Origin: Candidatus Hydrothermarchaeum profundi
Lineage (GTDB): Archaea > Hydrothermarchaeota > Hydrothermarchaeia > Hydrothermarchaeales > Hydrothermarchaeaceae
DNA length: 64,000 bases
Assembly: GCA_002011125.2 (NCBI GenBank)
Contig: MTMF02000008.1
Coordinates: 71,019 to 135,018 of the forward strand
Reading direction: 5' to 3'
Shown: piece after piece, positions 43,237 through 62,407 of the stretch
How positions within the stretch are numbered: the stretch's first letter is position 1
Layout of the letters: the number at the start of each line of letters is the position of its first letter
Translations under genes and position numbers: made by a program
The notes under the pieces: generated by a model
The model's database searches: none
What the model saw: the letters and a program-made list of their open reading frames with translations, nothing else
Told to the model about the DNA's origin: nothing

Positions 43237-43498
43237 AGGCGCCTTGCAGCTTAATTTCTTCTATTATCTTCTCGGCAAGGTTTCCAAGTCCCTGTTCTGT
43301 AAGCATCTTCTTTATCTTCCATATGGGCAAGGGCAACATAGAGAAGATCTCAACCACCTTCATGCTAACAAATTCCCGTAGCTCCCAGGATCCAACTACC
43401 TCAATGTATGCATGGACCCCGTCTCCCTCCATATCATATATATCTACACTATATACTAGATCTGAATCGCAAACCGGGCAACTTGCCTCAAGAAACAT
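43205..43498 (-). CDS. Hypothetical protein (CPVC)
   Basis: Overlaps both neighbours in the leftward operon. Confidence 0.55.
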   Translation of the reverse strand: MFLEASCPVCDSDLVYSVDIYDMEGDGVHAYIEVVGSWELREFVSMKVVEIFSMLPLPIWKIKKMLTEQGLGNLAEKIIEEIKLQGAYESKGMLLST

Positions 43499-43757
43499 CC
43501 TTTCCTTCCTCCAAACCCTCTAACACCTTCTTCCTTAACTCTGGATCCTCCTTCAAGATTCTAATCAACCTATCCGCTCTTCGATCATGCTCGAAACGTT
43601 CTTTTTCCAATTGTTCTTTCAGTCTCCAAATCGCCATCCTCACTATATCACTTATATTTCCGTATTCCCCCTTTTCCTCAAGGTCTTTTAGCCATTTGTA
43701 AAAGAATGGTTGAACCCTTACATGAAGGGTGTATACTTTCTTTCTTTCGTCTACCAT
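43488..43757 (-). CDS. Ribbon-helix-helix regulator (leftward)
   Basis: TLHVRV strand, LEEKGEYGNISDIVRMAI; GGTGA SD. Confidence 0.8.
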   Translation of the reverse strand: MVDERKKVYTLHVRVQPFFYKWLKDLEEKGEYGNISDIVRMAIWRLKEQLEKERFEHDRRADRLIRILKEDPELRKKVLEGLEEGKDVS

Positions 43758-43875
43758 ACAATCACCTATGTATTATTATAGCATTACATATAAAAATATG
43801 CATTTAAATGGCATTTAAAAGGCGTTACAAAATTCTTTTATCATGTGATTATAATGCATTCTTATGGTGATACAA
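43758..43875. promoter_or_regulatory. Divergent promoter/operator region
   Basis: AT-rich; GCATTTAAA twice, CATTTAAATG palindrome, further GCATT boxes. Confidence 0.55.
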
Positions 43876-44037
43876 ATGGAAAACAACAACGTTAGTATGA
43901 CCATAAGGCTTCCTAAACTACTTAAAGAAAACATGGAAGCCCTCGTAAGGGAGGGGAAATATCAAAGCAAGGGCGACCTAATACGTACAGCTGTTCGAAA
44001 AATAATTGAGCAAGAAAAGGAGGGGGAGGTGGCTTAG
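43876..44037 (+). CDS. Ribbon-helix-helix regulator (rightward, 53 aa, not in ORF track)
   Basis: MENNNVSMTIRLPKLLKENMEALVREGKYQSKGDLIRTAVRKIIEQEKEGEVA; GGTGA SD. Confidence 0.8.
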   Translation: MENNNVSMTIRLPKLLKENMEALVREGKYQSKGDLIRTAVRKIIEQEKEGEVA

Positions 44038-44038
44038 G

Positions 44039-45319
44039 GTGGACCCACGAGAAGTAGGCAAGATAACAAGAGAAGAGGTAGAAGAATACCGGAAGCTCTG
44101 CGAGAAGGACCCGGTATGGAAACAATACCTCGAGTTCAAGCGGAGCAACCGAGTCCAGGACAGGCGTATACTCTCATTCCTAATATTCCTGACCAAGGTC
44201 GAAGGCCGTGAAGCAAATCCCATAACACCAACGGAGCTTAGAGACAGACGCCTATCTGAGATCAAAAAAGGATCAGCGAAAAGCAAGGTCAAACACGACA
44301 TACTAGCATTCCTAGACTACCTAAGACATACATGCAAGGACTGCGGATACTGGATAGAAGGAGACCCACTAGCCCCGGAAAACATGCCGACCATGGCATG
44401 CCCAAGATGCGGGGGAACAAACCTATCGGCAAATACTAGGAACGCCATAGCCCAGGGGGTAAGAGGATTCTTCAGAGCAACAATAGACATGGAAGGAGCC
44501 AGCCCATTCAGGAAAGGCGAAAACTTCCCAGAATACGGATGGAACAAGGAGAAGAAGATCGTGATAACGCAGGAGCTATACGGAGACATGCTAGCGGTTG
44601 CCAACGATATCCAGAGGGTGATCCTTGTCCTGCTAAGGCAGACCGGTATGAGCAGCGACATACTCTACATCAAGGTTACAAACGAGCTAATGAACCAGCT
44701 TAACCAGGAGCCTCTCCCAGAGGTCGTTGTCTTCCCATGGAAAAGAACCAAGGTCATGGGGAAAGACTCACACCCAAGGTATGCGGCTATCTGCGGTGAC
44801 GGTGTAAGAATCATCAAGAGCTGGATAGAATACAAGAACTTGAAGCCTGGAGACTACCTTATCCCCGGGAGAAACGGGAAGCCCATGACCAAAGTGCAGC
44901 TGAGGGTAAACTTTAACGCCGTGGTCAAGAAAGCGGGGATCAAGACAAACGGTGAAAGACTCACGCCTCACGTGATGCGTGCAGCAGCCTTCACAGACCT
45001 TGTCTGGGCGAAGGATCATGACTTCGCCAAGTATGTTACCGGTAAGAACGTGGGAATCGAGATCATAACATACTACAATGGCCACCTAGACGACATCAAG
45101 GCCTTCTATCGTAAGGTCATCCCCCGGATGAATCCCCTGGAGCAGGTGCGCATAGAAAACAAGACTCTCAAAGACCGCCTGGACAGCCTCGAGGCTGAGA
45201 ACAAGGAGCTCAAGTCAACGCTTCAGGCAATCCTTCAATCCATGCATGAGCTAAGAACAGAGCTAGCAGCGATTAAGGGCATGGACAAGGGCCAGCTTTT
45301 AAAGGAAGCAATACTATAG
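44039..45319 (+). CDS. Atypical tyrosine recombinase with Zn-ribbon insert and coiled-coil tail
   Basis: QTGMS, KRTK, TPHVMR, TGK, TYY; CKDC..CPRC; likely GTG start 44039 after GGAGGTGG (ORF track start 44006). Confidence 0.75.
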   Translation: MDPREVGKITREEVEEYRKLCEKDPVWKQYLEFKRSNRVQDRRILSFLIFLTKVEGREANPITPTELRDRRLSEIKKGSAKSKVKHDILAFLDYLRHTCKDCGYWIEGDPLAPENMPTMACPRCGGTNLSANTRNAIAQGVRGFFRATIDMEGASPFRKGENFPEYGWNKEKKIVITQELYGDMLAVANDIQRVILVLLRQTGMSSDILYIKVTNELMNQLNQEPLPEVVVFPWKRTKVMGKDSHPRYAAICGDGVRIIKSWIEYKNLKPGDYLIPGRNGKPMTKVQLRVNFNAVVKKAGIKTNGERLTPHVMRAAAFTDLVWAKDHDFAKYVTGKNVGIEIITYYNGHLDDIKAFYRKVIPRMNPLEQVRIENKTLKDRLDSLEAENKELKSTLQAILQSMHELRTELAAIKGMDKGQLLKEAIL

Positions 45320-46896: not shown

Positions 46897-46900
46897 AGAG

Positions 46901-47554: not shown

Positions 47555-47556
47555 GG

Positions 47557-47941: not shown

Positions 47942-47947
47942 TATGTC

Positions 47948-49091: not shown

Positions 49092-49352
49092 ATGATACGT
49101 AAGGTCGTTGGAGATCTTATTTTCGCCGTCGTCTGTGTGATGGTGCTTTATGGCTTCTTTTGGGTTTACTTCAAGATAGACGACTATCTCTGCGGGGAAT
49201 ACTATACGAGCTGCACAATAGCTTATCCGGACACACTCCTATGTCCTTGGGCGCCGATAGCCATAATGATGCTGCTAAGCTTGCTCCTAGTTGTAGCCTT
49301 CATAAGAGTTGGAAGGAGGTTGGATAATGGAGATCTCCAAGGAAGTTGTTGA
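49092..49352 (+). CDS. Viral 2-TM protein
   Basis: TM-loop(Cys)-TM. Confidence 0.55.
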   Translation: MIRKVVGDLIFAVVCVMVLYGFFWVYFKIDDYLCGEYYTSCTIAYPDTLLCPWAPIAIMMLLSLLLVVAFIRVGRRLDNGDLQGSC

Positions 49353-49539
49353 CACGATTGCTAACTCGATAGAAAGCCTGGAATGCGAGAAATGCGCTCT
49401 CCGTAACTCTTGGATGGAGGCGCAGGCTGTCAAGGAGCTAAAGAAGGAGGTCACCAGGCTTAAGAAAGAGATAAAGAAGATGAAGCGCAGGAACAGGTAT
49501 CTCATTAAAAAGCTCAATCAGATGGGGGTAGTGGATTGA
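49327..49539 (+). CDS. Viral coiled-coil protein
   Basis: GGAGGT SD; CEKC plus heptads. Confidence 0.55.
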   Translation: MEISKEVVDTIANSIESLECEKCALRNSWMEAQAVKELKKEVTRLKKEIKKMKRRNRYLIKKLNQMGVVD

Positions 49540-49712
49540 GGAAATCTTCAAGACGAAAAAAAGGAGGTAGAGCGCCGATTTCGGCTAAGAAGCTTATCGA
49601 GATAGTCAGATATTATCGTATGGGCTACGGCTTCCACTCGACCGCCCGTAAGGCGGGTGTCTCGCCAAGCACTGTTAAGCGCTACATCCGGGAGCTCAAA
49701 GACCTCCTCTAA
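49536..49712 (+). CDS. Viral HTH protein (58 aa, not in ORF track)
   Basis: ...RMGYGFHSTARKAGVSPSTVKRYIRELKDLL. Confidence 0.7.
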   Translation: MRKSSRRKKGGRAPISAKKLIEIVRYYRMGYGFHSTARKAGVSPSTVKRYIRELKDLL

Positions 49713-50020
49713 TATGTCTTTAGCAGATAGCCAAGTATAACGCCAATAATAACCCCTATTACACCCAAGAGCCCTGATAAAAACAAGTTTATCCTCTGTT
49801 CCCTCTTTCTATCCTTCTCTCTTTCCATTAATCCTAGATAAGGAGAATTATGATCCTCTTTAACATCGCTATAACCTTTGAAATTAGGGCACCTTGGGGT
49901 GTCATCCCAGACCCTCATGTCATGCCTATAACACCAATAGTAGTCTGAAAAGGGAACAAAATATATGCAGTACTTACAATGATCCTTTTTTCCCATTATC
50001 CAGGATGCCTCCACTACCAA
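49709..50020 (-). CDS. AT-rich cargo protein (Cys cluster plus C-terminal TM)
   Basis: CKYC..C..C; hydrophobic tail. Confidence 0.55.
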   Translation of the reverse strand: MVVEASWIMGKKDHCKYCIYFVPFSDYYWCYRHDMRVWDDTPRCPNFKGYSDVKEDHNSPYLGLMEREKDRKREQRINLFLSGLLGVIGVIIGVILGYLLKTY

Positions 50021-50055
50021 CCTACTTTATGGCAACAGTCCTATAAAAAATATCT

Positions 50056-50733
50056 CTAACAATCAACCTTTTCAACTAAAAAATAAAAGGCGGCAAAGAA
50101 TGCCGTACCGAACGGAAATATTCGGAAATCTCCTTGAAATAAGAGCCCCCATCCAATATTAATTGCTATAAACAAGAGAAGAAAATAATCACTTACCCTC
50201 ATCTTTAAGAAAAAGTTCATAGGCCACTTAGTTACTTCTTTTATCCCACTCAAAAAGTCAGCCGTATCATACAACTCATATAATACTATACCCGTATCTT
50301 CATCTTTAATCTCTTTTTTATCTTTCGCTTTCAAAGTCAACCTTTTATTGAAAATACCCAGCCTCTCCTCAAGCCAATACATTCTACAACTCCTGATTTT
50401 ATTGAAAGCTGTGAGTCTTTTATCTATAAGCAATGCAATCGACATTAATAAAAGAGAAAATATGTAAGGCCCTAATAATCCTTCTAAGCATATTTGTGTA
50501 TCGCTACAGCATTTATAGTATTCTGCATATGTATTACTAATGATCACCAAGGAAGCTCCAAAAAAGACAGATATTATCACATAATTCATGCGGGTGTTTC
50601 TTTTATTCTCCTCCCTGAGTTCTTGATATTCAAACTTTAAAAGAGATATTCTTTGTTCATTATTCAAATCTTCAATATTTACATCCAAATCGTCAATATT
50701 TACGTCTTTTGATGGTTTTTTGGATTTTTTCAT
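50056..50733 (-). CDS. AT-rich cargo membrane protein
   Basis: EYQELREE followed by TM pair, further TMs. Confidence 0.65.
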   Translation of the reverse strand: MKKSKKPSKDVNIDDLDVNIEDLNNEQRISLLKFEYQELREENKRNTRMNYVIISVFFGASLVIISNTYAEYYKCCSDTQICLEGLLGPYIFSLLLMSIALLIDKRLTAFNKIRSCRMYWLEERLGIFNKRLTLKAKDKKEIKDEDTGIVLYELYDTADFLSGIKEVTKWPMNFFLKMRVSDYFLLLFIAINIGWGLLFQGDFRIFPFGTAFFAAFYFLVEKVDC

Positions 50734-50775
50734 TGGATTATTTTACTCATTTAAATATAAAAAAGATTTCCAAGG

Positions 50776-51114
50776 CTACTTTACATTGAATATATTCTTC
50801 AGCGCAACGAACATTAAAAAAGAGAGGGCTGCTCCAACCAAGGTAAAGATTCCTATATATTCTAGTACTATTATGATAAGCGGGATGGAGAGAGATGGGG
50901 GTATATTTTCTTCCCCGATTAGATCTAGCAGCACGGTGACTCCAAACCCTATAATCGCTGCTGCGAATACGATAGAAATATTAGCCAAGATCGTCTTTCT
51001 ATCCCGGCTATCAATGATCTTATCCCACTCTACTCTTTTGAAAACTAAAACTAATAGTATTAGAGGGATCGCTGATAATATGACGGCCTTAATAAGCGCC
51101 ATGACTTTTATCAC
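50776..51114 (-). CDS. AT-rich cargo 3-TM protein
   Basis: Hydrophobic segments. Confidence 0.55.
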   Translation of the reverse strand: MIKVMALIKAVILSAIPLILLVLVFKRVEWDKIIDSRDRKTILANISIVFAAAIIGFGVTVLLDLIGEENIPPSLSIPLIIIVLEYIGIFTLVGAALSFLMFVALKNIFNVK

Positions 51115-51365
51115 TATATCTGGAAGTGTAAAAAAAGATTTCTCCTAGCTTCCGAATGCTAAGTCGGATCGATGGAAGAAAGCATTATTGGTTTTTATAT
51201 ACTTGGTTGTCTTTTCTAACCCCTTCGTCCTAAGATTCTTATATGGTTTGATATTCTAACCATCTTGGAAAAAGAATTAAATTTTTCAAACATCTAGTAT
51301 TTTCCATGCCCTGTAAGAGAAAGAGAAGGAAAAGAAGGAAGAAGAGGTAAAGGTGGTGATAAGCC

Positions 51366-51626
51366 TTGGCGACCTCTGGAACAGCCATAGGAGTTGTGAT
51401 CCTACTTGCCACGCTCATGATAGGTGCGCTCATATTCACCCAGGTTGGCGAGCAAGTTGATCAACAGATCAATGAATCAGCGAACCCCGATGCACAGGCG
51501 GCCTTCGATAACATCGAGGACACGGGTTGGAATAGCCTGCAGATGCTTGCGATAAGCGCATTCGTTGCAGCAGCCGTGACGATCCTAGCCATACTCATGG
51601 TGCTAGGAAGAGGAGGCTCGATCTAA
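51366..51626 (+). CDS. Putative major capsid protein (two hydrophobic helices, spindle-virus type)
   Basis: 86 aa, hydrophobic N- and C-helices around polar linker; first gene of late block; GGTGGTGA SD. Confidence 0.7.
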   Translation: MATSGTAIGVVILLATLMIGALIFTQVGEQVDQQINESANPDAQAAFDNIEDTGWNSLQMLAISAFVAAAVTILAILMVLGRGGSI

Positions 51627-51641
51627 AATGGTCAAGCCCCC

Positions 51642-51665
51642 GCTCTCTCCTTTCTTTTTTTTATT
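51642..51665 (+). terminator. Oligo-T archaeal terminator between the capsid genes
   Basis: CTCTCTCCTTTC followed by a T-run and ATT. Confidence 0.55.
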
Positions 51666-51689
51666 AAATGGTAAAGGTGGTGATAAGCC

Positions 51690-52160
51690 TTGGCGACCTC
51701 TGGAACAGCCATAGGTGTTTTAATCCTGCTGACAACCCTGATGGTTGGAGCTCTCATCTTTTATAGCCTTGGATCTCAAACTCTTGAACAAGCCCTTGAC
51801 GAGGTAGTTGGCGAAGTAGTTGGAACCGCTAACGGAACTGGGTACCTGTCGGCTTCGCTGGCGCATGGAAGCATTGATCCAGGGAGTGAGACGATCTACT
51901 GTAATGACACGCCTACTTCGAGCTACACTCTAACGTATAGTACTGGGGCGATAGTGGTTGATGGAAGCGATTGCGCTAACGATGTCGTGGAAGCAGATTA
52001 CAGCTATCAGGGTACCGCATACTCGAATATGGAGCAGATCGAGGACACGGGTTGGAATAGCCTGCAGATGCTTGCGATAAGCGCATTCGTTGCAGCAGCC
52101 GTGACGATCCTAGCCATACTCATGGTGCTAGGAAGAGGAGGAAGATCTGGGGGGCTCTAA
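51690..52160 (+). CDS. Capsid paralog with ~70-aa beta-rich insertion
   Basis: Same N/C termini as 51366 gene; insert GEVVGTANG..HGSIDPGSETIY..YSTGAIVV..VEADYSY. Confidence 0.7.
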   Translation: MATSGTAIGVLILLTTLMVGALIFYSLGSQTLEQALDEVVGEVVGTANGTGYLSASLAHGSIDPGSETIYCNDTPTSSYTLTYSTGAIVVDGSDCANDVVEADYSYQGTAYSNMEQIEDTGWNSLQMLAISAFVAAAVTILAILMVLGRGGRSGGL

Positions 52161-52162
52161 AG

Positions 52163-52471
52163 TTGATCATCGAGCTCTACTATCTCTTTTTTTTTATTTC
52201 AACGGTCCTCGGGGTAGTAGCAGTTGTTAGCCCGCTTGGAAGCAGCAGCCAAAAGATCAGCAGCCCCATAGCCTTCGTACTATTCACAGCGCTAGGAATG
52301 CAGAGCTTCGACATAAAACGTGTCTACGTCCTAGAGGTCAACCAGACTCTGATGCAGCATATAACCACGATCAGCGATACCTCATTCGCCTACGTCTGCT
52401 ATGGCCTGGCTGTTATCATGTTTGTGATCGCCTTCGTAAGCAACTTATTGGTCTTGAGGGAGGTTGAGTAG
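52163..52471 (+). CDS. Viral 3-TM protein
   Basis: Hydrophobic segments. Confidence 0.6.
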   Translation: MIIELYYLFFFISTVLGVVAVVSPLGSSSQKISSPIAFVLFTALGMQSFDIKRVYVLEVNQTLMQHITTISDTSFAYVCYGLAVIMFVIAFVSNLLVLREVE

Positions 52472-52473
52472 AG

Positions 52474-52914
52474 TTGGATAAGGAGGATATAAAGAACATC
52501 GAGAAGATCCGGGAAGTTCAAAGAGAAAAGGCGCAGAGTGATCTACCTTTTAACTCGTATATCTACTCGGCTATACCGATTGGGGCCGACCCGCATGTGC
52601 AGAGGGAGTACTGGGCTTTCGTGAATAAGCAGCTTGCCCTTGCGAACCACACAGGCGATGACGTGGAAAGCATACTTAACCGGCTCAGGATCATAGATCT
52701 TGAGACTAAGTCAAAGCTTAGGCGATATGAGTTAAGGAGCTTTGAGAAGGTCAACCGGGGGAACTACTCGAATACCAGGGTTTTCGTTCAAAGCCTTGCC
52801 AGCCTTGGAAAGGATATGGCTTTGATCAAGGAGATGGGTAAGAGCCGTAAGGAGATAACGGTTGAGGATAAGCCGCCGGAGCCTAAGCTTAGGAAGATAC
52901 GGATAGGGGGATGA
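52474..52914 (+). CDS. Viral hypothetical protein
   Basis: SD, operon position. Confidence 0.6.
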   Translation: MDKEDIKNIEKIREVQREKAQSDLPFNSYIYSAIPIGADPHVQREYWAFVNKQLALANHTGDDVESILNRLRIIDLETKSKLRRYELRSFEKVNRGNYSNTRVFVQSLASLGKDMALIKEMGKSRKEITVEDKPPEPKLRKIRIGG

Positions 52915-53693
52915 TGGCCTTGGCTAGCTGGATACTCGAGCATTATGCTGCTATACTTGCCGTCTCGATAGTCTTTCATGGCCTAGGTATAGCCTTCCTG
53001 GTAGTGCTCTGGAAGCTTCATCCCGGCTTTCTGAAGCATGTCATGGCGAAGCTCCGGGGGAAGGACTTCGTTTTTGTCATGAGAAGTGACCGTAAGATGG
53101 GTTTTCTCCCGGCGGAATACCGGGAGGGAGACCTGCATACGGCTATGGGAAGCTTTTCGGCTGAGCCTGACGACATGGGTGTATATGAGGGGATCCCAAC
53201 GGCGATAGCTTACGCCCCGTATGCCAGGTCATTGAACCCTAAGGCGCTGGTGGCCCTGCGGAAGATAAGGCGGCTGGGTATTGACAACTACCATGACCTA
53301 ATCCGCATCCTATACATCGACTTGGAGAAGCTTAAGGAAAAAGGGGAGATCAAGGAGGAAGAGGCCCAGGAGATCCTGAAGCTTAGAAAAGAGCTCGGGG
53401 AGCTTGACGGGAAGATCCTGAACGACCTCGAGGTCATCAGGGTCAACGATGTGATCAACTTCCTTGAGGAGGACAACCCGATCATCAAGGATGCAAAGAT
53501 CGAGAGAGAGGTAACCGATGAACTGCGGAAGATAAGGAACCCGATAACCCGGCTTATGCCCTATGTCTTCATGTTCATGATGGTGATGATGGCTGCTGCG
53601 ATAGCCTTCGCTATAATCCAGACAGTTGGAGGGGGGAAGGGAGAAGACCAGATTATTAAGGAATCTACAACGGCTGCTTTGAAGGTGGGATAA
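52911..53693 (+). CDS. Viral protein with N- and C-terminal TM anchors
   Basis: Two terminal hydrophobic helices. Confidence 0.65.
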   Translation: MMALASWILEHYAAILAVSIVFHGLGIAFLVVLWKLHPGFLKHVMAKLRGKDFVFVMRSDRKMGFLPAEYREGDLHTAMGSFSAEPDDMGVYEGIPTAIAYAPYARSLNPKALVALRKIRRLGIDNYHDLIRILYIDLEKLKEKGEIKEEEAQEILKLRKELGELDGKILNDLEVIRVNDVINFLEEDNPIIKDAKIEREVTDELRKIRNPITRLMPYVFMFMMVMMAAAIAFAIIQTVGGGKGEDQIIKESTTAALKVG

Positions 53694-53696
53694 GAA

Positions 53697-55646
53697 ATGG
53701 GTGAATGGGGAACTGAACTGGATGCTCCGGCATGGGTAAAGGCCTTCAAAGAAGATCCTACTGGAAGGCTGACCAGGATCATAGTTCAATATCGTTATGG
53801 ACGTGGACAGCATGGAACAGCGACACCACGGGAGTTAACCGTTGAAGAAGCCAAGGAGACCCCGGAGTATCGATCCAAGGATGTTCCTAAGCTTAAGGTT
53901 GACCCGGTAACTGGGGAGGAAATGGTTTATGATCCTAAGACCGGGGTGACATATAGCCGGGAGGCCTGGGAAAACAAGCAGGTCCGGGACTTCGTCCAGG
54001 AGGTAAAAGAAAAGACTGGAACTGAGCCTACGCCGGAGGAGATAAAGGAGTTCAAGGAGAAAGGAGAGGTAACGATAAGACGCCAGAGGCTCTATTTAGC
54101 ATCGCCTTTCCCACCAGCACCAGAGGAGGAAAAAAAGCTCATTATAAGGGGCGAGCAGGTTTTGAGGAAAAAGGGTGAAGAGACTGAGACATTAATTCTT
54201 AAACCCGACATATCGGGTCCTTCTTGGTATGATAGGCCAGCCGGGGCCCAGCCGACCACGCCAACTTTTTCGCCGGAGTGGGAAAAATATTGGGACGAGA
54301 GGGCTGCTATAAGGAGAGAGCTTGAGAAGCAGACGCTTGAAGTAGCAGCCGAGGTTGCTGGAAGCATGGCGGTTGGAGCATTAGTGGGGCTTCCGATAGG
54401 AGTGGCTAGCAAGATCTCGGTTCCCTTTGCAAAAGGATTAGCTGTTGGCGCTACTGGAGCAGGTGCAGCGGTGCTTGGGAAAGAAGTTAAGAAGGACATA
54501 GAGGCTGGGAAGACGGAGAAAGCGGTTCAGGATGTCTTACTCTTTGGGATCGGAGGCTTAGGAGCAGTACCAGGCTACAGGGCTGGAGCTAAGATCGGGA
54601 GCATAATGAGAGGCGCTCCAACTATCAGGCTGGTTGAAGGTAAGCTCACTTATAAGGGCCAGCAGGTGACCTCGGAGTGGTTGAAGGCTCAAGTAGAGAG
54701 AAAGCCAGCAAGGGTCGAGTCTGTTGATATAGAGCCTACTGGGGAAGGATCCTTGAAGGGGATTGAGCTAGGATATGCAAAAACCAGGACCCTAAAGGTT
54801 GATAGAGACATAATGGTCCAGGTGGAGGACCTGGTTCCTTCAAGGACTGTTGAAACAGGCTTCCCCATGGAGGCAACGCTTAGAGAAGTAAAGATTGGTG
54901 AACCAGAGTATAGGGAGGTTAAGGTAACAGGCCATAAGATCGTTACGGAGAAGGGAGAGCTAAGAAACCTGCTTGCTGAGAAAAGAGTGAGGACAGAAAG
55001 AGAGGGAGAAATTAGTGCAACCGTTGAGGAAAGGAGGACCATCCCGGATATACCTGGTGAGAGGAGTAAGATCATACATGAAGTCAATGTTGGGAAGGCT
55101 AAGGAGGGAGGGCTAGCTGAACAGGTCGGTAGAGAGAGGTTTAGGTATAAGCCTATCATTACTGAGGGCCTAGGAGAAAAGGCATGGTTCAAGAACCTTT
55201 ATTCAAGCTTACCGTTATCATTCTTTAGGGCAAGGTCCTTTACAGGGCCTCAAGAGAAAACACCGGAGTTAGACCTAGATCTACAGGATATTTCCATCCT
55301 TCAAAGAGAAGACCTAACAGAACTGGAGCAACAGGACACCCTTAAACTTCAGAGAGAGGACCTAATAGCCGATCTAGGTCTATCTGATATTGTTATCAGC
55401 CTTCAAAGAGCTAGTCTAATACCGTCAGCGAAGGCGATAGAAACCCCTTTCCAGGAGACCCCTGTAGAGCCAAGGACTCCGGTGGCTCCGGAGGTTATCC
55501 CTGAACTCCTCGAAACCGAGCTAGGCTTTGGAGGAAGGAGACGTGGGTCAAAAGGCCGGGGTGGAATGAGGGTAGCGAAGATCTACAACATCGAGAACGC
55601 CTTCGCAACACCGGAACAATTCCTTAGAAAGATCTTAGGGGGGTGA
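53697..55646 (+). CDS. Large viral protein with central Gly/Ala-rich hydrophobic segments
   Basis: 649 aa; VAGSMAVGALVGLPIG / LFGIGGLGAVPG. Confidence 0.65.
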   Translation: MGEWGTELDAPAWVKAFKEDPTGRLTRIIVQYRYGRGQHGTATPRELTVEEAKETPEYRSKDVPKLKVDPVTGEEMVYDPKTGVTYSREAWENKQVRDFVQEVKEKTGTEPTPEEIKEFKEKGEVTIRRQRLYLASPFPPAPEEEKKLIIRGEQVLRKKGEETETLILKPDISGPSWYDRPAGAQPTTPTFSPEWEKYWDERAAIRRELEKQTLEVAAEVAGSMAVGALVGLPIGVASKISVPFAKGLAVGATGAGAAVLGKEVKKDIEAGKTEKAVQDVLLFGIGGLGAVPGYRAGAKIGSIMRGAPTIRLVEGKLTYKGQQVTSEWLKAQVERKPARVESVDIEPTGEGSLKGIELGYAKTRTLKVDRDIMVQVEDLVPSRTVETGFPMEATLREVKIGEPEYREVKVTGHKIVTEKGELRNLLAEKRVRTEREGEISATVEERRTIPDIPGERSKIIHEVNVGKAKEGGLAEQVGRERFRYKPIITEGLGEKAWFKNLYSSLPLSFFRARSFTGPQEKTPELDLDLQDISILQREDLTELEQQDTLKLQREDLIADLGLSDIVISLQRASLIPSAKAIETPFQETPVEPRTPVAPEVIPELLETELGFGGRRRGSKGRGGMRVAKIYNIENAFATPEQFLRKILGG

Positions 55647-55655
55647 AAAGGGAAA

Positions 55656-55913
55656 TTGGGTGCAATAAAAGTATGGGTAACCGTACTAGTCGGCTGGTTC
55701 ATCCTTGGAGCAGCATATCTTTTCATGGAGCCAATGTTCGCAATGATCTCCAATATTGCCTTGCAAAACGGGGTTGACAGGGCATACCTGGATCTTATAG
55801 AGAAGATGTTCGAGTACTCGCCTATACTGATGGCGGTCTCGCTCCTCATATATGGCATCATAGGGAGCATTCGGAGTGAGGAAGGATCCCAGACAATATA
55901 CCAGAGGTGGTGA
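55656..55913 (+). CDS. Viral 2-TM protein
   Basis: Two hydrophobic helices. Confidence 0.6.
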   Translation: MGAIKVWVTVLVGWFILGAAYLFMEPMFAMISNIALQNGVDRAYLDLIEKMFEYSPILMAVSLLIYGIIGSIRSEEGSQTIYQRW

Positions 55914-58657
55914 AGCCCTTGCGGAGGCTGCTATTGTTCACGCTTGTGTTGCTTGCGGTAAAGATAGACTTAGCCGGTGCTCTTCCCAGCGAATGCTCTG
56001 GGGCAAGCTATTACGCTCATTATAAGATCAATAATACCGGTGGGGGAAGCCTGACGGATTACCCTGTGTTCTTCAACATTACTCGTGAGGCTCACATGCC
56101 AACTAATGCCTCGAATGGGCTTTGTTTCGCTGTGGATAGTGGAGGTTCTGAGGTCTTTGTCCCTTATTTTGTCGAAGAAGACACTAGCTCCTATATAGAG
56201 GGCTACGTGAATGTTTCAAGCCTCCCTGCTTCCTCTGAGGTCGAGCTCTATGTCTACTATAATACTTCTAACGAGGCCGTTGGGTGGGCTAACATGTTCT
56301 ACTTCTATGACGATGCCTCGGTTGATAGGTCTTCAGAATACTCCATTTCTCTCGGTAGCGGACACAGTTTCGGCTGGGATAGCGCAGGATACTACTATAT
56401 CTCTGGCACCGGTAATAGTGTAACTACGGTTTATCACCCAACAGATATCCCAGACAACTTTACCATGGAGTACAGTATACTAGGTGTTGGTGATGGCAAT
56501 AGCAGAGACAATCTACTTGGTGTAATTAATGACCACTACCCAAGTAGGACAGATTACATAGAGTTTGGTTTGCATCACCAAGCTAATCAATATTTTTATA
56601 GAACTGATGAAAGTGGTGGAAGTTTCTCAGGAAGCTTCACGGATGGCGTTTGGTATAACTTAAAGATAGTTGCATGGAATGGTGTGGCTAAGTTCTATGT
56701 CGATGGCTCTTACTTAGACTCGCTTACCGCTGAAAAGAACAATAGATACTATCCAGCAGCAGAATACTATCCTTACATCACTACAGGAACAACCTATATG
56801 CGTTGGAAGAATGTTAAAGTAAGGAAGTACGCAGAGCCAGATCCGAACGTCTACAAGGTGAGCGGTGAACAAGTAGTAGCAAATGTAACGCAGTTCACTA
56901 TATATTCCCCAACAAACTACTCACTAAATAATCATAATGTTTCTATTAATATTGAATATCTGAATACCTATGGCCTAGAGTGGGTGAAGTACTCGGTAAA
57001 CGGGTCGAATTCTTCAACCTATAACCTCTCTTTTGAGTATGAGGACCCCAGTCAGGCGAACTATACGGAGAGCGGAACCGGAACATGGGCTAACTCCAGC
57101 TATGGCTATGACGGTGACTGGGATACCTATGCAACAATAGGAACTGACTGGCCGAATAATGTCTATCTTTATGTCTATGAGAATTATACCGGGTATAGCG
57201 GGTATTATGCTGATTATACGGCTACATGGCGGTTTAAGTTTGGAGACAATGGTAACTCTGGAAGCGTTAAGGCGCAATGCTTTGACGGCTCAGGCTGGAA
57301 TACCCTGTATGACAGCGGGACAATAGAGAAGCCCGGCTATGGTAAAACTGTTGATGTTGATCTTCCCTTGGGATGCCTGCTGGATCCGATTCAGATTAGA
57401 ACCGTGCTTTGGAGCCAGCAGGTCATGGGCTACCAGAGGTATTATGAGGGGATGCTTATCTTCCATAGTCCAACCGAATATAATCTCACGGACTCAACGA
57501 TCCTGGGTCAAGGGTTTTATGAGCTCGTGGCCTGGGCAAACGATACAAATGGGGATATAAGGAGCAGCGACCCGGTATATTTCTATGTCGGGCAAGCGAA
57601 TGCTACTATAAGAGTTCTTGACGAGATAAGCCTGGACACGGTGGGCTTTGATGTTCCGATAAACGTTTTTAACGCAACGAGCTTCGAGCTTATAGCGAAT
57701 GTAACCGCTGTAGGCGGGGAAGCCAATCTCCTTATACCGGATGATCCCGTTTACTTCCAAGCCGGTGATGTAAACGATACAAGCAATCCCTACATTAGGA
57801 GATACTATCTTGATGCTGAGCCCTCTAACGTAACGGTTGATATCCTGTTTCCGGTTGGAGACGTGGTTAACACCATATTTGTTTTGAACGACTATACCGG
57901 GAGGTTTGGTAGCTCTAACATTAAGGTTAAGAAGTACATACAGAATAACCTGACAACCGTTGACTGGAACTTTTTCGACATCGAGGATAAGAGCAGCCAT
58001 TACTTCCTTAAGAACCATAATTATCAGATCTACCTTGATAACGGAGTAGAGGAGAGAAGCCTAGGATGGTTCACGCCAGTACAGGACTCCATCACCAGCC
58101 TAGTGGTATCTGATATCGAGGTTAACGCTATTGCTAATGACTGGCTTAACTACTCCTTCAAGGCCGAGAATGAGACAGGCCTCATAGAATTTGTCTGGAA
58201 TAGCAGCATACCGGTCAGCAGGGTTGAGCTCTGGATAAACTATACGAATGGAACCCTGGTAGCCTATTATTCACAGACCGCAGACCTTGGGAGCATAACG
58301 CACTATGTTGACAACGGCTATAACTATATCGTGAGGTATAGGGTTGAAGCTGTTTCCGGGGAAGTATTTGATCCGATTATTCCCGTGGTCTTCGTGAAAA
58401 GCATTCCAAGCCTTTTCTACCCCTTGCCGAGTGGCTGGACATGGCTCTATGGTGCTTTTAGCGTTGGCATGATAATACTCATATGTATCGCTTTTAGCCG
58501 TGAAAACGCTGAGATAGCAGCGGTGCTAAGCGTGGGGGTCGCCGGGTTCTTCTATTATATTGACTGGCTCCCGGTGAGCGGGTTGGCGATAGCCCTTGCA
58601 GCTATCGTTGCGGTGTTCGGGTACATGGAGAGAAGCCGTAAGGGGGTTGAGAAATGA
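55907..58657 (+). CDS. Secreted membrane-anchored glycoprotein with DUF2341 and lectin-like domains (adhesin/tail)
   Basis: Signal peptide; INNTGGGSLTDYPV..VPYFVE..VNVSSLPA..LYVYY; >20 N-x-S/T sequons; C-terminal TMs. Confidence 0.75.
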   Translation: MVKPLRRLLLFTLVLLAVKIDLAGALPSECSGASYYAHYKINNTGGGSLTDYPVFFNITREAHMPTNASNGLCFAVDSGGSEVFVPYFVEEDTSSYIEGYVNVSSLPASSEVELYVYYNTSNEAVGWANMFYFYDDASVDRSSEYSISLGSGHSFGWDSAGYYYISGTGNSVTTVYHPTDIPDNFTMEYSILGVGDGNSRDNLLGVINDHYPSRTDYIEFGLHHQANQYFYRTDESGGSFSGSFTDGVWYNLKIVAWNGVAKFYVDGSYLDSLTAEKNNRYYPAAEYYPYITTGTTYMRWKNVKVRKYAEPDPNVYKVSGEQVVANVTQFTIYSPTNYSLNNHNVSINIEYLNTYGLEWVKYSVNGSNSSTYNLSFEYEDPSQANYTESGTGTWANSSYGYDGDWDTYATIGTDWPNNVYLYVYENYTGYSGYYADYTATWRFKFGDNGNSGSVKAQCFDGSGWNTLYDSGTIEKPGYGKTVDVDLPLGCLLDPIQIRTVLWSQQVMGYQRYYEGMLIFHSPTEYNLTDSTILGQGFYELVAWANDTNGDIRSSDPVYFYVGQANATIRVLDEISLDTVGFDVPINVFNATSFELIANVTAVGGEANLLIPDDPVYFQAGDVNDTSNPYIRRYYLDAEPSNVTVDILFPVGDVVNTIFVLNDYTGRFGSSNIKVKKYIQNNLTTVDWNFFDIEDKSSHYFLKNHNYQIYLDNGVEERSLGWFTPVQDSITSLVVSDIEVNAIANDWLNYSFKAENETGLIEFVWNSSIPVSRVELWINYTNGTLVAYYSQTADLGSITHYVDNGYNYIVRYRVEAVSGEVFDPIIPVVFVKSIPSLFYPLPSGWTWLYGAFSVGMIILICIAFSRENAEIAAVLSVGVAGFFYYIDWLPVSGLAIALAAIVAVFGYMERSRKGVEK

Positions 58658-59019
58658 GCCTGCTTCATAAGTATATAACGGTCACGATCATAATTAGCCT
58701 GTCCTTTAACCTGGTGAATCTCACGGGGATATTCCAGTTTGAGCAAAGCGTTCCACTTCAAATAAACTACCAAGGCGAATGGGATAGCCTGAAGACCTAT
58801 CTTGAGGATCCAGGTATTTTCGACTATTTTAAGGCACTGGGCTTCCTCACGGTTCAAGGGCTAGCCCTTATATTCAAGTTTGCAGTCAGCCTTTTCACGA
58901 TCTACTATGACATAATGAGGGCCTTCATGATACCGGAGGCCATGGCTTTCACGATACAGGCTAGCCTAGATCTACTGGTATTCCTTGGAATCGCTTATAC
59001 GGTGCGTGGGGGTGGATAA
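58654..59019 (+). CDS. Viral membrane protein
   Basis: Hydrophobic; ATGA overlap. Confidence 0.6.
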   Translation: MSLLHKYITVTIIISLSFNLVNLTGIFQFEQSVPLQINYQGEWDSLKTYLEDPGIFDYFKALGFLTVQGLALIFKFAVSLFTIYYDIMRAFMIPEAMAFTIQASLDLLVFLGIAYTVRGGG

Positions 59020-59025
59020 AGGATT

Positions 59026-59367
59026 ATGGCTTTCTACAACTTGACCAACACCACTTTCTATTTTAATGCCAGCGAGATGGGGATCGTTCAGAACTGGAGT
59101 AACATGAGCAGCCCAAACGAATACCTCTATCCGATGTTATGGTGGGAGACAAGCCTAGGAAGCATGTTTTGGCTGCTGCTATTCTTCAGCATGGTATCGA
59201 TAGTCTTTGTTAAGACCAAGAGCATGGTGACCACTAGCGTCGTGGTGATCTTCCTTAGCAGCCTGATGATCCTCCGGCTCCCAGATACTGCTCAGATGAT
59301 CGCATACTTTGCCCTCGTAATGGGGGTATTCGGAGTGCTCTACAAGATCCTTGTTGGAAGGGGATGA
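59026..59367 (+). CDS. Viral membrane glycoprotein
   Basis: Five sequons in first 30 aa, 3 TMs. Confidence 0.6.
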   Translation: MAFYNLTNTTFYFNASEMGIVQNWSNMSSPNEYLYPMLWWETSLGSMFWLLLFFSMVSIVFVKTKSMVTTSVVVIFLSSLMILRLPDTAQMIAYFALVMGVFGVLYKILVGRG

Positions 59368-59544
59368 ATGGTGGACGACTACCTGGTGATAATAGGTAAG
59401 GAAGCGCTACCCGCCACGAGGGATAACCTGCTCCTCTTGAAGAGGAGGAGCGGGCTGGTGATAGAGAGGTCTGGTAAGAGGCTCTATAAGGTTAAGAACG
59501 GTGTCCCGGATCCTGAGGTGATAATAAGGGCGCTGCTGGGGTGA
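59368..59544 (+). CDS. Viral 58-aa protein (not in ORF track)
   Basis: MVDDYLVIIGKEALPATRDN...RALLG fills the gap exactly. Confidence 0.5.
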   Translation: MVDDYLVIIGKEALPATRDNLLLLKRRSGLVIERSGKRLYKVKNGVPDPEVIIRALLG

Positions 59545-59548
59545 TATA

Positions 59549-59923
59549 GTGGGAGAGGAAACTATAATGGAGAAGGTCTCCAGGAGCAGTGAGGCCACGG
59601 AACAGTTCCTTAACTTTAAGATCCGTGATAGTCTACGTCTGATGCTTGAGCAGGGTAATCAGAGGGGGTTTATCGAGCTTGTCGAGCTACTGGAGTACAA
59701 TCTTCAGCCCGTGTTTGACGAAGAATACCGGGAGGATATCAAGCGGATTGAGGAAGCCAAAAAAGAGTTCCTGGAGGAGAACCTAGGTGCGGATCCTTTT
59801 CAAAATAGGGAGCTTAAGAAACAAGCGGCTTATGATGCTGCAAAAGAGAAGTATGGGGCCCTGATACGCCTGCTCTCCAGGAAGGGCCTGACCGGGGCGC
59901 TTGACGGGTTTGAGGACCTATGA
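59549..59923 (+). CDS. Viral helical protein
   Basis: GGTGA SD; coupled to ATPase. Confidence 0.6.
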   Translation: MGEETIMEKVSRSSEATEQFLNFKIRDSLRLMLEQGNQRGFIELVELLEYNLQPVFDEEYREDIKRIEEAKKEFLEENLGADPFQNRELKKQAAYDAAKEKYGALIRLLSRKGLTGALDGFEDL

Positions 59924-60762
59924 GCATACTAATCGACCATATCAGGGAGAGGCTCAGGCATAACAAGAACTTCATGATGAATATTAGTGGAGAAACCGGT
60001 TCAGGTAAGAGCTATTCGGCTCTCCGTATCGCCGAGCTCATTGACCCGGGCTTTAATGCTGAGAGGATCGTTTTCACGCCTGAGGACTATATCAATGCGA
60101 TAGAAGCTGCTAGGAAGAGGGAATGCATCATATTTGATGAGGCTGGCGTGGGGATACCTAACCGTGAGTGGTACAGCATTACGAACCGGCTTGTGAACTA
60201 TACTAGCCAGATATTCAGGTTCAAGAACCTTGTTGTGATCTATACTAGTCCTTTCAGTAAGTTCATTGATAGCAGCCTTGTTAAGCTGCTTCACGCCTAT
60301 GCTGAGACCGTGGGGATAGACTACAAGAACAACTTGTGCCATCTTAAGGTGTTCAGGCTTCAGTATAATGAGAGAGCCGGGAAGCTCTACTATCACTACC
60401 TTACGCTTAGGGAGCCCGGGGGGATGCTTAAGAGGATAGTCAGGGTAAGGGTTTCAAGGCCCAGCCCCGAGCTGGTAAGGGAGTATGAGGCTAAGAAAAA
60501 GAGGTACTTCAAGACCCTGCTCAAGGACGCACAGGAGATAATAGAAGAGGCGAAGAGGAGGGAGGAAGAGAAGAAGAGGCTCGGGAGAATAGACTATGAA
60601 GAGATCTGCGACAAGGTCGTTGCTGACCTCGACAAGTATACCCGGAGCTGGGGGAAGCGTAAGATCATAGATACTAAGAGGATTGAGGCGGACTTCAACA
60701 TAAGCTATGGAGCTGCGAGGAAGGTTGTTGGGAAGCTGCTTTCTAGAGGGGTCATATCTTGA
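59920..60762 (+). CDS. Viral AAA/P-loop ATPase with possible C-terminal HTH
   Basis: Walker A GETGSGKS, Walker B IIFDEAG; tail IEADFNISYGAARKV. Confidence 0.85.
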   Translation: MSILIDHIRERLRHNKNFMMNISGETGSGKSYSALRIAELIDPGFNAERIVFTPEDYINAIEAARKRECIIFDEAGVGIPNREWYSITNRLVNYTSQIFRFKNLVVIYTSPFSKFIDSSLVKLLHAYAETVGIDYKNNLCHLKVFRLQYNERAGKLYYHYLTLREPGGMLKRIVRVRVSRPSPELVREYEAKKKRYFKTLLKDAQEIIEEAKRREEEKKRLGRIDYEEICDKVVADLDKYTRSWGKRKIIDTKRIEADFNISYGAARKVVGKLLSRGVIS

Positions 60763-60829
60763 AAAAATGGAATTAATCTAATATAGTAAAAAAAAAGGCA
60801 AAATTTTAACAGGTTGGAGGTTAATTGAT

Positions 60830-61045
60830 TTGGGAGAGAGAGGTAAAAGGTTTTTAGAGAAGAACCCGGTAGAATCTCTAAGTAATGTTAAGAAGCGGGA
60901 GATCCTGTTTTCCTTAGATCTTGCCATGAGGGCTATTAAGATGAAGGAGAAGCTAGGAATACCTCTCACGCCGAAGGAACTCTACCTAATCGATGTATGT
61001 GAAGAAGCAATCCCTGCATTAAAGGAGAGCCTTAAAGAAAAATAG
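60830..61045 (+). CDS. Hypothetical protein
   Basis: GGAGGT SD. Confidence 0.5.
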   Translation: MGERGKRFLEKNPVESLSNVKKREILFSLDLAMRAIKMKEKLGIPLTPKELYLIDVCEEAIPALKESLKEK

Positions 61046-61105
61046 CGCTGATGCTTTCAAGGGGTTGTGATCTAGCTTCCAAGAAAGGGAGCGATGATAA
61101 TAGGT

Positions 61106-61131
61106 TAATATTGGGTATATACCCAATATTA
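61106..61131. repeat. Perfect 26-bp palindrome
   Basis: TAATATTGGGTATATACCCAATATTA is its own reverse complement. Confidence 0.95.
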
Positions 61132-61145
61132 TTCATACTCATATT

Positions 61146-61571
61146 TACTCCAATTTTACTCCAATAGTTTTTACCAGAACTAGATACTCCAAAGAAATAT
61201 TATTTTACTCCAAAATTACTCCAAAATTTTTGAGGAATTATTATTTCTAATCATATTTTTGGAGTAAAATCATGGAGTATTTGTTCATGCTTTTTGAATA
61301 AACTAATATCACTTTTTTGGTTTCAAGCTTTTTTCGAAAAATAAGCTTAAATCAGGCTTCTTTTTACTCCAAGCTTACTCCAAAGAAAAAGACCGTAAAG
61401 ATAATGTGTTACTCAGACCAAGCCAACGATCAAAAACCATGTTACTCCATAGCATGGAGTAGTACAAAAATGTACATTAACCAAGACCAAAAATATCTAT
61501 GTCTACTATGCTACTTTATAGCATGGAGTAATTTTACTCCAAACAGAAACTTGTGATACATTTTTGGAGTA
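61146..61571. repeat. Array of 14 TACTCCA/TGGAGTA boxes
   Basis: Forward at 61146, 61157, 61185, 61206, 61217, 61365, 61376, 61443, 61535; reverse at 61260, 61273, 61455, 61524, 61565. Confidence 0.9.
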
Positions 61572-61606
61572 AAAAATTAAAAAAGGAAAGTTTAACTTAT
61601 GGTGAT

Positions 61607-61801
61607 TTAAAAATAGGGAAGCTTCTCTTTTATTTTCATTATCTTTTTAGGTAGTTTGGAAACATGTTTTTCTATTCTTCCTAAAATCTCAACAGATCGT
61701 CTTCCACAATAATCACATTTATCACTTTCCCGAGAAATTATACGCTCTTTACCGTATTGATAACAAGATGGATTTTTGCATCTTATTCTCATTTGGCTCA
61801 T
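61607..61801 (-). CDS. Small Zn-ribbon protein
   Basis: CKNPSC...CDYC. Confidence 0.5.
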   Translation of the reverse strand: MSQMRIRCKNPSCYQYGKERIISRESDKCDYCGRRSVEILGRIEKHVSKLPKKIMKIKEKLPYF

Positions 61802-62332
61802 TTTAAATCAAAATGGCAGTAACTCTCCACGTATATTGTAACTCTCCACTATATATAATATAAGTTAAATATAAACCGTTGACAAATATAAAAATCTATT
61901 TCCTAGTTCAAGACTACCAATTATATAATCCAAGTCAAAAATTGCGCTTTATGCTTTTCCGATACTACATATTTTTATTTTTCTGCGGTTACCAGTACCA
62001 TGAGGTACTTCTCAATAATTAGTTGCCTATTTTCACTGATGAAAACTGTCTTATCTTTGAATCCACGTCTATCAGCCTTATTGGACATGAGCTAAACGGA
62101 GGATAAGTCTTTTCTCAGCTCTTCAATCGCCGTTAAACGCTCACTCTTTTAAGCCAGATGTTTATTCCTGCTCTTTGTAAGTATTTTACCTTTACTTCTA
62201 GGAAAAAAATAAATAGGCTAATGACTACTGAGTCTTGGCTAATACGCACTTTAATATTCTGTGTAAATACCTTGGAGACAAATTTTCTAAGGTTAGGAAA
62301 ATAATCAGAGATATACAATCAGAAATCTGTAT

Positions 62333-62407
62333 GGCCACGGTAGTGTAGCCTGGTTAGCACAAGGGACTGTGGATCCCTTAGCCCGAGTTCAAATCTCGGC
62401 CGTGGCC
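62333..62407 (+). tRNA. tRNA-His(GTG), encoded G-1
   Basis: G-GCCACGG, AGGGA-CTGTGGA-TCCCT, GTTCAAATC, C discriminator. Confidence 0.96.

Follow-up and report, generated by a model that had tools for sequence, protein, structure and literature searches.

A dense array of TACTCCA sites beside the gene for a B251-like ATPase in a putative spindle-virus-like provirus of Candidatus Hydrothermarchaeum profundi

Introduction

In spindle-shaped archaeal viruses, the replication origin and the role of the universally conserved B251-type ATPase are both unsettled according to the available text of two sources (PMC9608457, 10.64898/2026.06.17.732947). The region of SSV1 that holds the sites of the regulator F55 is described there as a proposed, unproven origin (PMC9608457, 10.64898/2026.06.17.732947). 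The same sources describe B251 and A154, both retained by the satellite pSSVx, as 'implicated in replication and packaging' (PMC9608457), and B251 as 'possibly involved in DNA packaging', the SSV1 origin being only hypothesised (10.64898/2026.06.17.732947). A wyrdvirus ATPase has been reported to be pI-like, to have no membrane anchor, to be 'similar to the B251 ATPase of fuselloviruses' and to belong to the morphogenetic module (10.1101/2021.07.29.453957). As far as these texts are available, they place the ATPase family in the morphogenetic module and tie it to packaging at least as closely as to replication (PMC9608457, 10.1101/2021.07.29.453957, 10.64898/2026.06.17.732947). Our literature search found no paper joining fusellovirus, origin of replication and B251. 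Here we analyze an array of identical short sites next to the gene for a B251-like ATPase, within a 64,000-nucleotide stretch of the genome of Candidatus Hydrothermarchaeum profundi (contig MTMF02000008.1, positions 71,019 to 135,018). We refer to the whole stretch as the window and use its coordinates throughout.

The array lies at the right end of what appears to be an integrated, spindle-shaped-virus-like element of about 18-20 kb. The reading that we prefer, tentatively and at somewhat under an even chance, is that a protein of the element is loaded there for replication or packaging, the tail of the ATPase being the likeliest binder.

Results

Sequence and geometry of the array

The features of the array region are the following.

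61146..61571, both strands: TACTCCA array of 14 exact sites, consensus T-TACTCCA-A
61146, 61157, 61185, 61206, 61217, 61365, 61376, 61443 and 61535: starts of TACTCCA on the plus strand
61260, 61273, 61455, 61524 and 61565: starts of TACTCCA on the minus strand
61443..61461: convergent TACTCCA pair, TACTCCAT-agc-ATGGAGTA
61505-61530: decayed copy, 85% identical, of the 26-nt unit of the convergent pair, its left half lost
61280..61364: site-free AT-rich spacer of 85 bp (GC content 0.23-0.30) between a left and a right block of 7 sites each
61106..61131: perfect palindrome (arms of 13 nt) in the gap that separates the array from the final gene of the long operon

A count of letters gave 14 exact copies of TACTCCA, 9 on the plus strand and 5 on the minus strand. 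The whole genome (19 contigs, 2,186,281 bp, both strands; the window is C8:71019-135018) holds 499 copies, which corresponds to 0.097 expected per 426 bp, and no other 500-bp stretch of it contains more than 4. The window contains 30 copies, compared with 7.46 +/- 2.56 in 100 shuffles (largest 13). Among the 7-mer clusters of the genome that are not of low complexity, the array is the densest, with 11 copies on the grid used and 9 for the runner-up (8717 windows). The first-pass annotation, made from the letters alone, had called the cluster far denser than chance, and these counts bear it out; with no second cluster in the genome, the word is not simply a motif common everywhere. Beside the 14 exact copies, the array contains no copy with one mismatch. 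A T precedes 11 of the 14 and an A follows 10 of the 14, and the site is therefore approximately T-TACTCCA-A. Two of the copies have 15 identical bases in common.

The consecutive spacings are 11, 28, 21, 11, 43, 13, 92, 11, 67, 12, 69, 11 and 30 bp, so that 12 of the 14 sites form six pairs spaced 11-13 bp: three direct on the plus strand, one direct on the minus strand, one convergent and one divergent. At least four spacings of exactly 11 occurred with a frequency of 0.0006 in 200,000 random placements of 14 sites. The three direct 11-bp pairs noticed earlier (61146/61157, 61206/61217, 61365/61376) are all there, as is the inverted pair at 61443-61461, and a fourth, divergent 11-bp pair (61524-/61535+) adds to them.

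The array sits at a drop in GC content from 0.46 to 0.30; the GC content is 0.17-0.40 across the array region in 40-bp steps and 0.305 over 61001-62000. The spacer contains an imperfect inverted repeat at about 61325-61348 and, by composition alone, is a candidate unwinding stretch. Folded as a DNA hairpin, the palindrome at 61106..61131 gives -8.5 kcal/mol (z -4.6). No open reading frame (ORF) of at least 40 aa crosses the left half of the array, and the one longer ORF (61317-61556, 79 aa, starting with TTG) is without relatives among the fetched loci L004-L109 and carries a 1-base insertion in the metagenomic variant described below. As the 11-bp spacings shift the reading frame, orientations differ and ORFs are lacking, the array is noncoding, in agreement with the earlier description of AT-rich noncoding DNA and at odds with a decayed coding repeat. 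It is not a regular tandem array, for which TRF returned just two 2-copy 11-bp units, and it matches no Rfam family. A CRISPR array, already dismissed in the first-pass annotation, can likewise be set aside given a core of 7-9 bp (not at least 23 nt), spacings from 11 to 92 and sites in both orientations. The array is a cis-acting multisite feature of the mobile element and not of the host.

The ATPase next to the array

The neighbors of the array within the window are the following.

59920..60762, plus strand: P-loop ATPase of 280 aa, of the fusellovirus B251/pI(Zot)-like family; candidate binder of the array
60562..60759, plus strand: C-terminal tail of the ATPase, consisting of a helix, a beta-hairpin and a helix-turn-helix (HTH)
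60830..61045, plus strand: ORF of 71 aa between the ATPase gene and the array, with no family match
61607..61801, minus strand: Zn-ribbon ORF of 64 aa to the right of the array, perhaps part of the element

The ATPase gene lies 384 bp upstream of the first site, and its product has the Walker A motif GETGSGKS. A profile of 38 homologues aligned to SSV1 B251 with hhalign at 96.9% (E 1.5e-10, 178 columns), and phrog_5484 was matched with E 4.1e-9 by the window ATPase and 5.2e-101 by B251. These comparisons place the protein, by sequence, in the fusellovirus B251 family. Its sole match in the phage collection is a homologue in the lemon-shaped Haloferax virus LSV-48N, 34% identical over 68%, and a viral contig collection scanned with the ATPase alone gave no close relative. 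Kinship with the pleolipovirus NTPase VP8 (HRPV-1) was rejected, as hhalign gave 1.2% and VP8 falls in a different PHROG. Database searches returned 124 relatives. Among the 120 homologues listed, PF05707 (Zot/pI) is the commonest Pfam family, and some of them have HTH domains; PF05707 was not reached by the window ATPase itself, which also matched no Pfam family of the DnaA, Cdc6 or AAA type at an E-value of 0.01 or lower.

In the AlphaFold model of the ATPase (pLDDT 93.7), the P-loop core leads into a beta-rich insert, and then come a helix of 40 residues and a small domain at the C-terminus; no lid follows the core. Its fold matches are generic (RecA, AAA, VirB4, HerA and the Zot N-domain, Z up to 10.5), the Zot N-domain 2r2a (Foldseek E 6.9e-5, Z 8.7) being no better than other P-loop folds. 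The architecture of the tail is kept in 18 aligned relatives, in which the end of its last helix is conserved (A-K/R-x-I/V-K-K) and the first four residues of that helix are variable. Modeled alone, the tail has a pLDDT of 84.5 and no fold match at E 0.001. The best matches are all winged-helix DNA-binding domains (AraR, GntR, CRP-type, FtsK gamma) with E of at least 0.17, that to FtsK gamma having E 0.97. The first-pass annotation had described an ATPase with an HTH-like tail acting as a DnaA/Orc-like initiator. In the model the HTH-like tail holds, weakly, and the second part is not supported: by profile the protein is of the B251 type, and it belongs to no recognized initiator family.

A diverged variant keeps the array

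We compared the public metagenome runs X1-X4 as contigs, with depths given per contig. Run X4 contains a variant of the element that has 92-97% identity to the window over the listed pieces. Of the six coding pieces listed, five have 92-96% identity, and the remaining one, the 5' region of the ribbon-helix-helix (RHH) and integrase genes, has 97%. On one X4 contig, the last 111 bases of the ATPase gene are followed by 89 other letters replacing 382, and then by the array. This variant is without the 71-aa ORF, and the palindrome at 61106..61131 is absent or replaced; the replacement of the ORF means that the array is conserved without it. Over 61146-61297, 4 of the 152 array letters are changed and there is one extra unit, TACTCCAATT; the right half of the array is found on another X4 contig. 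The variant thus indicates that the array travels with the ATPase gene and is at least as conserved as the genes. Its varying unit number is, by analogy, as in binding-site arrays. Similarity in X4 ends from 61692 on, within the 64-aa Zn-ribbon ORF, and from 61692 to 62342 nothing is covered except the tRNA.

In the source run X1, contig depth stays at about 88 from the left flank through the element, which points to a quiet single-copy provirus in that sample. The X2 contigs inside the element (44031-61317) have depths of 53-75, compared with 32-42 in the flanks, except for the contig at 49629-51391 (depth 41) and the one with the ATPase gene and array at 59720-61317 (depth 31); this pattern may reflect coexisting variants that differ at the right end. 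Run X3 gave no element cover and an identical 262-nt contig at 61893-62154 (depth 2), which hints, weakly, at a right end to the left of 61893.

Repeats beside the ATPase genes of relatives

Across 83 nonredundant loci of relatives, the ATPase alone is in common. Exact 7-mer arrays (at least 6 copies, at most 1.5 kb after the ATPase gene) occur at 6 of 49 loci, compared with 20 of 1645 background windows: L024 has 13 copies, L025 has 12, L041 has 9, and L052, L079 and L093 have 6 each. The word itself is not shared. Repeats of at least 9 nt cover a median of 9.3% of the first noncoding gap after the ATPase gene (n=40) and 0% of other gaps (n=143; one-sided p=0.004, with loci that are related and not independent). 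From these sequences, the relatives of the ATPase tend to carry element-specific repeats just downstream of its gene.

The repeats take different forms. L013 has three perfect palindromes built on GGAGAA after the ATPase gene, and L041 has TTACTCC-gaagt-GGAGTAA directly after the ATPase stop codon; L030, L085 and L079 have direct repeats downstream. In genomes of the same class, L141 has five 12-bp tandem units and L140 has AACAAA inverted repeats between the ATPase and integrase genes. The viral contig L024 contains, after the ATPase gene and one small ORF, about 590 bp of noncoding DNA (11300-11890) made almost entirely of 5-nt-periodic AGTNN units (AGTAAAG x14), far denser than the TACTCCA array. 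L041 ends, 0.7 kb past its ATPase gene and at the end of a metagenome contig, in about 16 tandem 15-nt units (CTGCGTCTATGTYCM-like; 1925-2160). The pattern TTACTCCAANNTTACTCCAA was found at 26 loci in viral contigs, mostly as a single pair and with no ATPase homologue within 2 kb, and was judged unrelated.

Gene content and limits of the element

The remaining features used below are the following.

43488..43757, minus strand: RHH paralogue of 89 aa, divergent from the 57-aa RHH gene
43864..44037, plus strand: RHH protein of 57 aa (Arc/CopG-like), its gene overlapping the integrase gene start; rival candidate binder of the array
44006..45319, plus strand: intact tyrosine integrase of 437 aa
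51366..52160, plus strand: pair of small paralogues (86 and 156 aa), both with two hydrophobic helices
55907..58657, plus strand: secreted, C-terminally anchored, adhesin-like protein of 916 aa
62334..62408, plus strand: tRNA-His, the farthest point that the element could reach on the right

Between about 43.9 and 61.05 kb, the window forms a block with GC content of about 0.44-0.53 (with a dip to 0.34 at 50-51 kb), compared with 0.39 for the genome. The array stands at the end of this block and is the only AT-rich noncoding stretch of the element. In the integrase, the N-terminal part is long (about 200 aa) and carries a CxxC...CxxC pair. The two-helix pattern of the paralogous small proteins is that reported, in the available text, for spindle-virus major capsid proteins (10.1101/2021.07.29.453957). 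Neither protein has a PHROG or Pfam family. A 649-aa protein is encoded between them and the 916-aa gene, after which come four small genes and then the ATPase gene. The element thereby matches the order reported for wyrdviruses in the part of that source available: two-helix capsid-like proteins, a large adhesin-like protein, small genes, ATPase (10.1101/2021.07.29.453957). In BLAST comparisons of the full set of element proteins, the ATPase was the only one shared with SSV1 and LSV-48N and almost the only one shared with the fetched loci. Because the capsid-like proteins have no family match, the description as spindle-virus-like, a sequence-based inference, rests on the ATPase, protein features and gene order.

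No Rep, primase, MCM or polymerase family was found among 37 ORFs scanned, as the first-pass annotation had already noted for the first three, and Rep-Arvir/DUF7845 is absent from the genome. Rep-Arvir is the initiator recently described for pleomorphic and lemon-shaped archaeal viruses, according to the accessible text (PMC13107129). Both Cdc6_C matches of the genome are on contig C9, outside the window, the second and weaker one at C9:1871820. Beside the orc1/cdc6 gene on that contig (locus L001, 2889-2952) are two identical 19-nt TATTTCCACTGGAAATTTG words 45 bp apart (2889 and 2934), the probable host oriC as judged from this arrangement.

The two capsid-like genes arose by a recent duplication, with 51513-51616 equal to 52038-52141 (104 nt identical) and a further stretch of 91 nt at 85% identity; contigs of X1 and X2 break there (51346-52141). 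At 48151-49091 the element has genes for a DUF5131 protein (phage Gp37/Gp68-like, radical-SAM-related; E 3e-49) and a MazG-like nucleoside triphosphate pyrophosphohydrolase (phrog_2245, E 8e-28). Of only four copies of the word GCATTTAAA in the window, two start 11 bp apart, at 43800 and 43811, within the 106 bp that separate the divergent RHH genes; judged by its position, this pair is likely an RHH operator. On the right, the 12-mer GTAACTCTCCAC occurs twice, 19 bp apart (61819-61849), between a TATA-like stretch and the start of the Zn-ribbon ORF (61801, minus strand); its layout suggests a small operator of its own. Between tRNA-Glu and the element lies a gene pair for DarT (PF14487, E 2e-36) and a macro-domain DarG-like protein (PF01661, E 3e-16; 40843-42311, minus strand, GC content about 0.33), which may be defence cargo of the same or a neighboring island.

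The tRNA-His gene is the sole copy in the genome and is therefore host DNA; a 16S gene follows, at which the contig ends. ARAGORN called one tRNA-Pyl (cta) among 45 genome tRNAs, which may be a miscall. No direct repeats of at least 20 nt that could be attachment sites were found between the element ends: a comparison of 38.9-46 kb with 60.7-63.3 kb gave, at best, exact matches of 11-13 nt or, allowing one mismatch, of 16 nt, all at chance level (for example CTTATGGTGAT at 43861 and 61596, and a 16-mer at 42332 and 62193). The 3' ends of tRNA-Glu and tRNA-His have no further copy in the window. In the genomes of 40 relatives, tRNA-His alone matches, and the neighbors of their tRNA-His genes map to another contig of the present genome, so that the empty site could not be reconstructed.

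Discussion

A proposed loading region for an element-encoded protein

From the array, its uniqueness, its linkage to the ATPase gene and its conservation, together with the family and tail fold of the ATPase, we infer a binding protein, cooperative binding and an outcome. An element-encoded DNA-binding protein would read the 14 identical 9-bp T-TACTCCA-A sites, and the best candidate reader would be the winged-helix-like tail of the B251/pI-like ATPase encoded upstream. As the tail is predicted to sit on a 40-residue helix, neighboring subunits could reach sites in either orientation; pairs of sites one turn apart in any orientation fit an oligomer with flexible stalks better than a rigid symmetric dimer. 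Binding at the sites would seed an oligomer of the ATPase at this single place on the viral genome. This oligomer could then open the flanking AT-rich DNA, so that episomal replication begins, or could mark the genome and hand it over during virion assembly. We consider the two outcomes about equally probable. Replication is favored by the array being the sole AT-rich stretch, by site blocks that flank a spacer and by the lack of another replication gene in the element; genome selection is favored by the pI-like family with its place in the morphogenetic module, by pSSVx keeping the ATPase and by LSV-48N reportedly having a separate Rep in addition to its homologous ATPase. Stated in its narrower form, with the TTACTCCAA array as a genome-packaging signal and the winged-helix tail of the ATPase selecting the viral chromosome for the budding spindle particle, the packaging outcome is unlikely.

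Several observations weigh against the ATPase as the reader of the array. SSV1 B251 is without such a tail, and its gene is directly followed by the integrase gene. The fold matches of the ATPase are generic. LSV-48N, which has a homologous ATPase, is reported to carry a separate initiator, Rep-Arvir (PMC13107129). Only the 6 of 49 relatives mentioned above have an exact 7-mer array after the ATPase gene, the TACTCC word is not enriched after the ATPase genes of relatives (0.49 vs 0.43 per kb), and downstream repeats (at least 10% cover) are no commoner with a homologous tail (3 of 15 vs 8 of 42, p=0.20). The gap at an operon end may be rich in repeats anyway, owing to terminators and the next promoter. 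The flat depth in X1 gives no sign of an active origin and is uninformative for a silent provirus.

The first-pass annotation had proposed an origin, partition or packaging site. What stands of this is a cis-acting array of the element for which origin and packaging are both in play, as is an operator, which had not been considered. A small repressor of the element, such as one of its two RHH proteins, would bind paired sites as dimers of dimers in a lysogeny or early-gene switch and, like F55 in SSV1, silence control-region promoters; circularization would place the region upstream of the RHH-integrase operon. We regard this, the chief rival, as possible, if doubtful. RHH proteins usually bind tandem sites one helical turn apart, and the element encodes the 57-aa Arc/CopG-like protein and its divergent paralogue. 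The 7-mer statistic, applied to SSV1, picks the T5/T6/Tind control region through an ATAGATA cluster: 13 of the 16 copies in this virus with the same ATPase family lie in 4976-5777, in both orientations and with 11-bp pairs at 5017/5028, 5727/5738 and 5766/5777. These are, according to the available text, the published sites of the 55-aa regulator F55 (PMC9608457). However, the gap between the RHH genes has its own 11-bp tandem word, GCATTTAAA, with no TACTCCA near the left end even with one mismatch, and none of the 16 TTTAWATA boxes of the window falls in 61046-61900, where the promoter consensus of this lineage may differ. These two points, which favor the ATPase, speak against the RHH proteins as readers of TACTCCA, neither decisively. 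In SSV1 the sites flank annotated box A elements, unlike those of the array, which in the integrated state has no gene start inside or directly beside it on either strand, and 14 sites are many for one or two promoters.

The same DNA could be an episomal origin read by a host factor or an unrecognized element protein instead of the ATPase, which we consider improbable. The array is the sole AT-rich noncoding stretch, its blocks flank the 85-bp spacer (GC content 0.23-0.30) near palindromes, in the circular form nearly all genes would point away from it with the same orientation, and the corresponding low-GC, repeat- and palindrome-rich region of SSV1 has been proposed as an origin in the texts as available (10.64898/2026.06.17.732947, PMC9608457). 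On the other side, the window has no ORB-like word and the host origin by orc1 uses TATTTCCACTGGAAATTTG; TACTCCA is not enriched elsewhere in the host genome, as the site of a host factor might be; and no replication protein was found among the 37 ORFs, nor Rep-Arvir in the genome. More improbable still are arm-type sites of the integrase or an excision factor, which would shape the recombination complex beside an attachment site. Short repeated sites in both orientations are typical of recombination arms (lambda, L5), the array lies no more than about 0.5 kb from the element's right end, and the long N-terminal part of the integrase could bind arm sites. The sites are nevertheless at one end only, with none near the left end (42300-44200) beyond background even with one mismatch, and no attachment-site repeat was found between the element ends. 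To our knowledge, 14 sites over 425 bp on one arm are far above arm-type cases. We give hardly any credence to a host feature upstream of the tRNA-His/rRNA operon, a decayed coding repeat or chance. The array does lie between the last clear element gene and tRNA-His, where the exact element end is unmapped, but in the 40 relatives only the tRNA matches there, and X4 keeps the array beside the ATPase gene and leaves 61692-62342 uncovered. Copy counts, the genome density ranking and the spacing test exclude chance, and reading frames, orientation and the lack of ORFs exclude decayed coding DNA.

A loading region for the ATPase thus remains our preferred, tentative reading, and the provirus offers a clean test pair: a B251 homologue with its own predicted DNA-binding tail, beside 14 identical sites kept in a diverged variant. 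Binding by the tail would make the sites the first defined DNA target for the B251 family. If an RHH protein binds instead, the array would represent a second, distant switch of the SSV1 type, in a lineage far from Sulfolobales. A packaging site, if that is what the array is, would be the first cis-acting one for any spindle-shaped archaeal virus; it would give the B251 family a function and explain why pSSVx keeps a B251 homologue despite having its own replicase.

Comparison with known systems

The closest likeness is to the F55 control region of SSV1 (T5/T6/Tind/Tlys). Both viruses have a B251-type ATPase and a single low-GC, repeat- and palindrome-rich noncoding hub, in which a clustered word occurs in both orientations and in 11-bp tandem pairs. 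The words differ, the F55 consensus being given as ATAGATAGAGT in the text available (PMC9608457) and the word here being TACTCCA. In SSV1 the sites are arranged around annotated TATA boxes and transcript starts, whereas neither a TTTAWATA box nor an adjacent gene start was found for the array. The SSV1 hub is 4 kb from B251, whereas the array directly follows the ATPase gene, and B251 is without the HTH-like tail, the alignment stopping at residue 234 of 251.

Iteron origins (R6K, P1, pSC101) consist of identical short sites, direct and inverted, beside an AT-rich stretch and the gene for the binder, and their unit number varies. The array resembles them, in structure only, in its 14 identical sites, three direct 11-bp pairs, AT-rich stretch, adjacent gene for the presumed binder and varying unit number. 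Iterons are, however, mostly 17-22 bp and bound by dedicated Rep proteins, whereas the core is 7-9 bp here and the element has no Rep family. Archaeal origin recognition boxes (ORB and mini-ORB, bound by Orc1/Cdc6) are likewise repeated sites flanking AT-rich DNA. The ORB-like dyad of the host is another word that is not found in the window, where the only match, at 12161, differs at 3 positions and is no better than chance would give. The array also has no orc1/cdc6 gene nearby; the first-pass annotation was thus right to see no ORB in it.

In parC-type centromeres (plasmid R1, with the RHH protein ParR), direct repeats with 11-bp phasing form two blocks. The array is also phased by 11 bp and in two blocks; it has no ParM or ParA partner, and the adjacent ATPase has an ordinary Walker A motif and belongs to another family. 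At packaging and translocation sites such as the R-sites of lambda cosB read by gpNu1, the P1 pac hexamers and KOPS read by FtsK gamma, short words are recognized by an HTH domain. The likeness lies in short repeated words near the gene of an ATPase with a winged-helix-like tail. The cosB, pac and KOPS systems pump DNA into preformed capsids or across septa, whereas spindle viruses, for which we know of no packaging signal, bud, and the element has no terminase. Short binding-site arrays in the control regions of mobile elements are already known, and the TACTCCA array is a new and very clean case among them.

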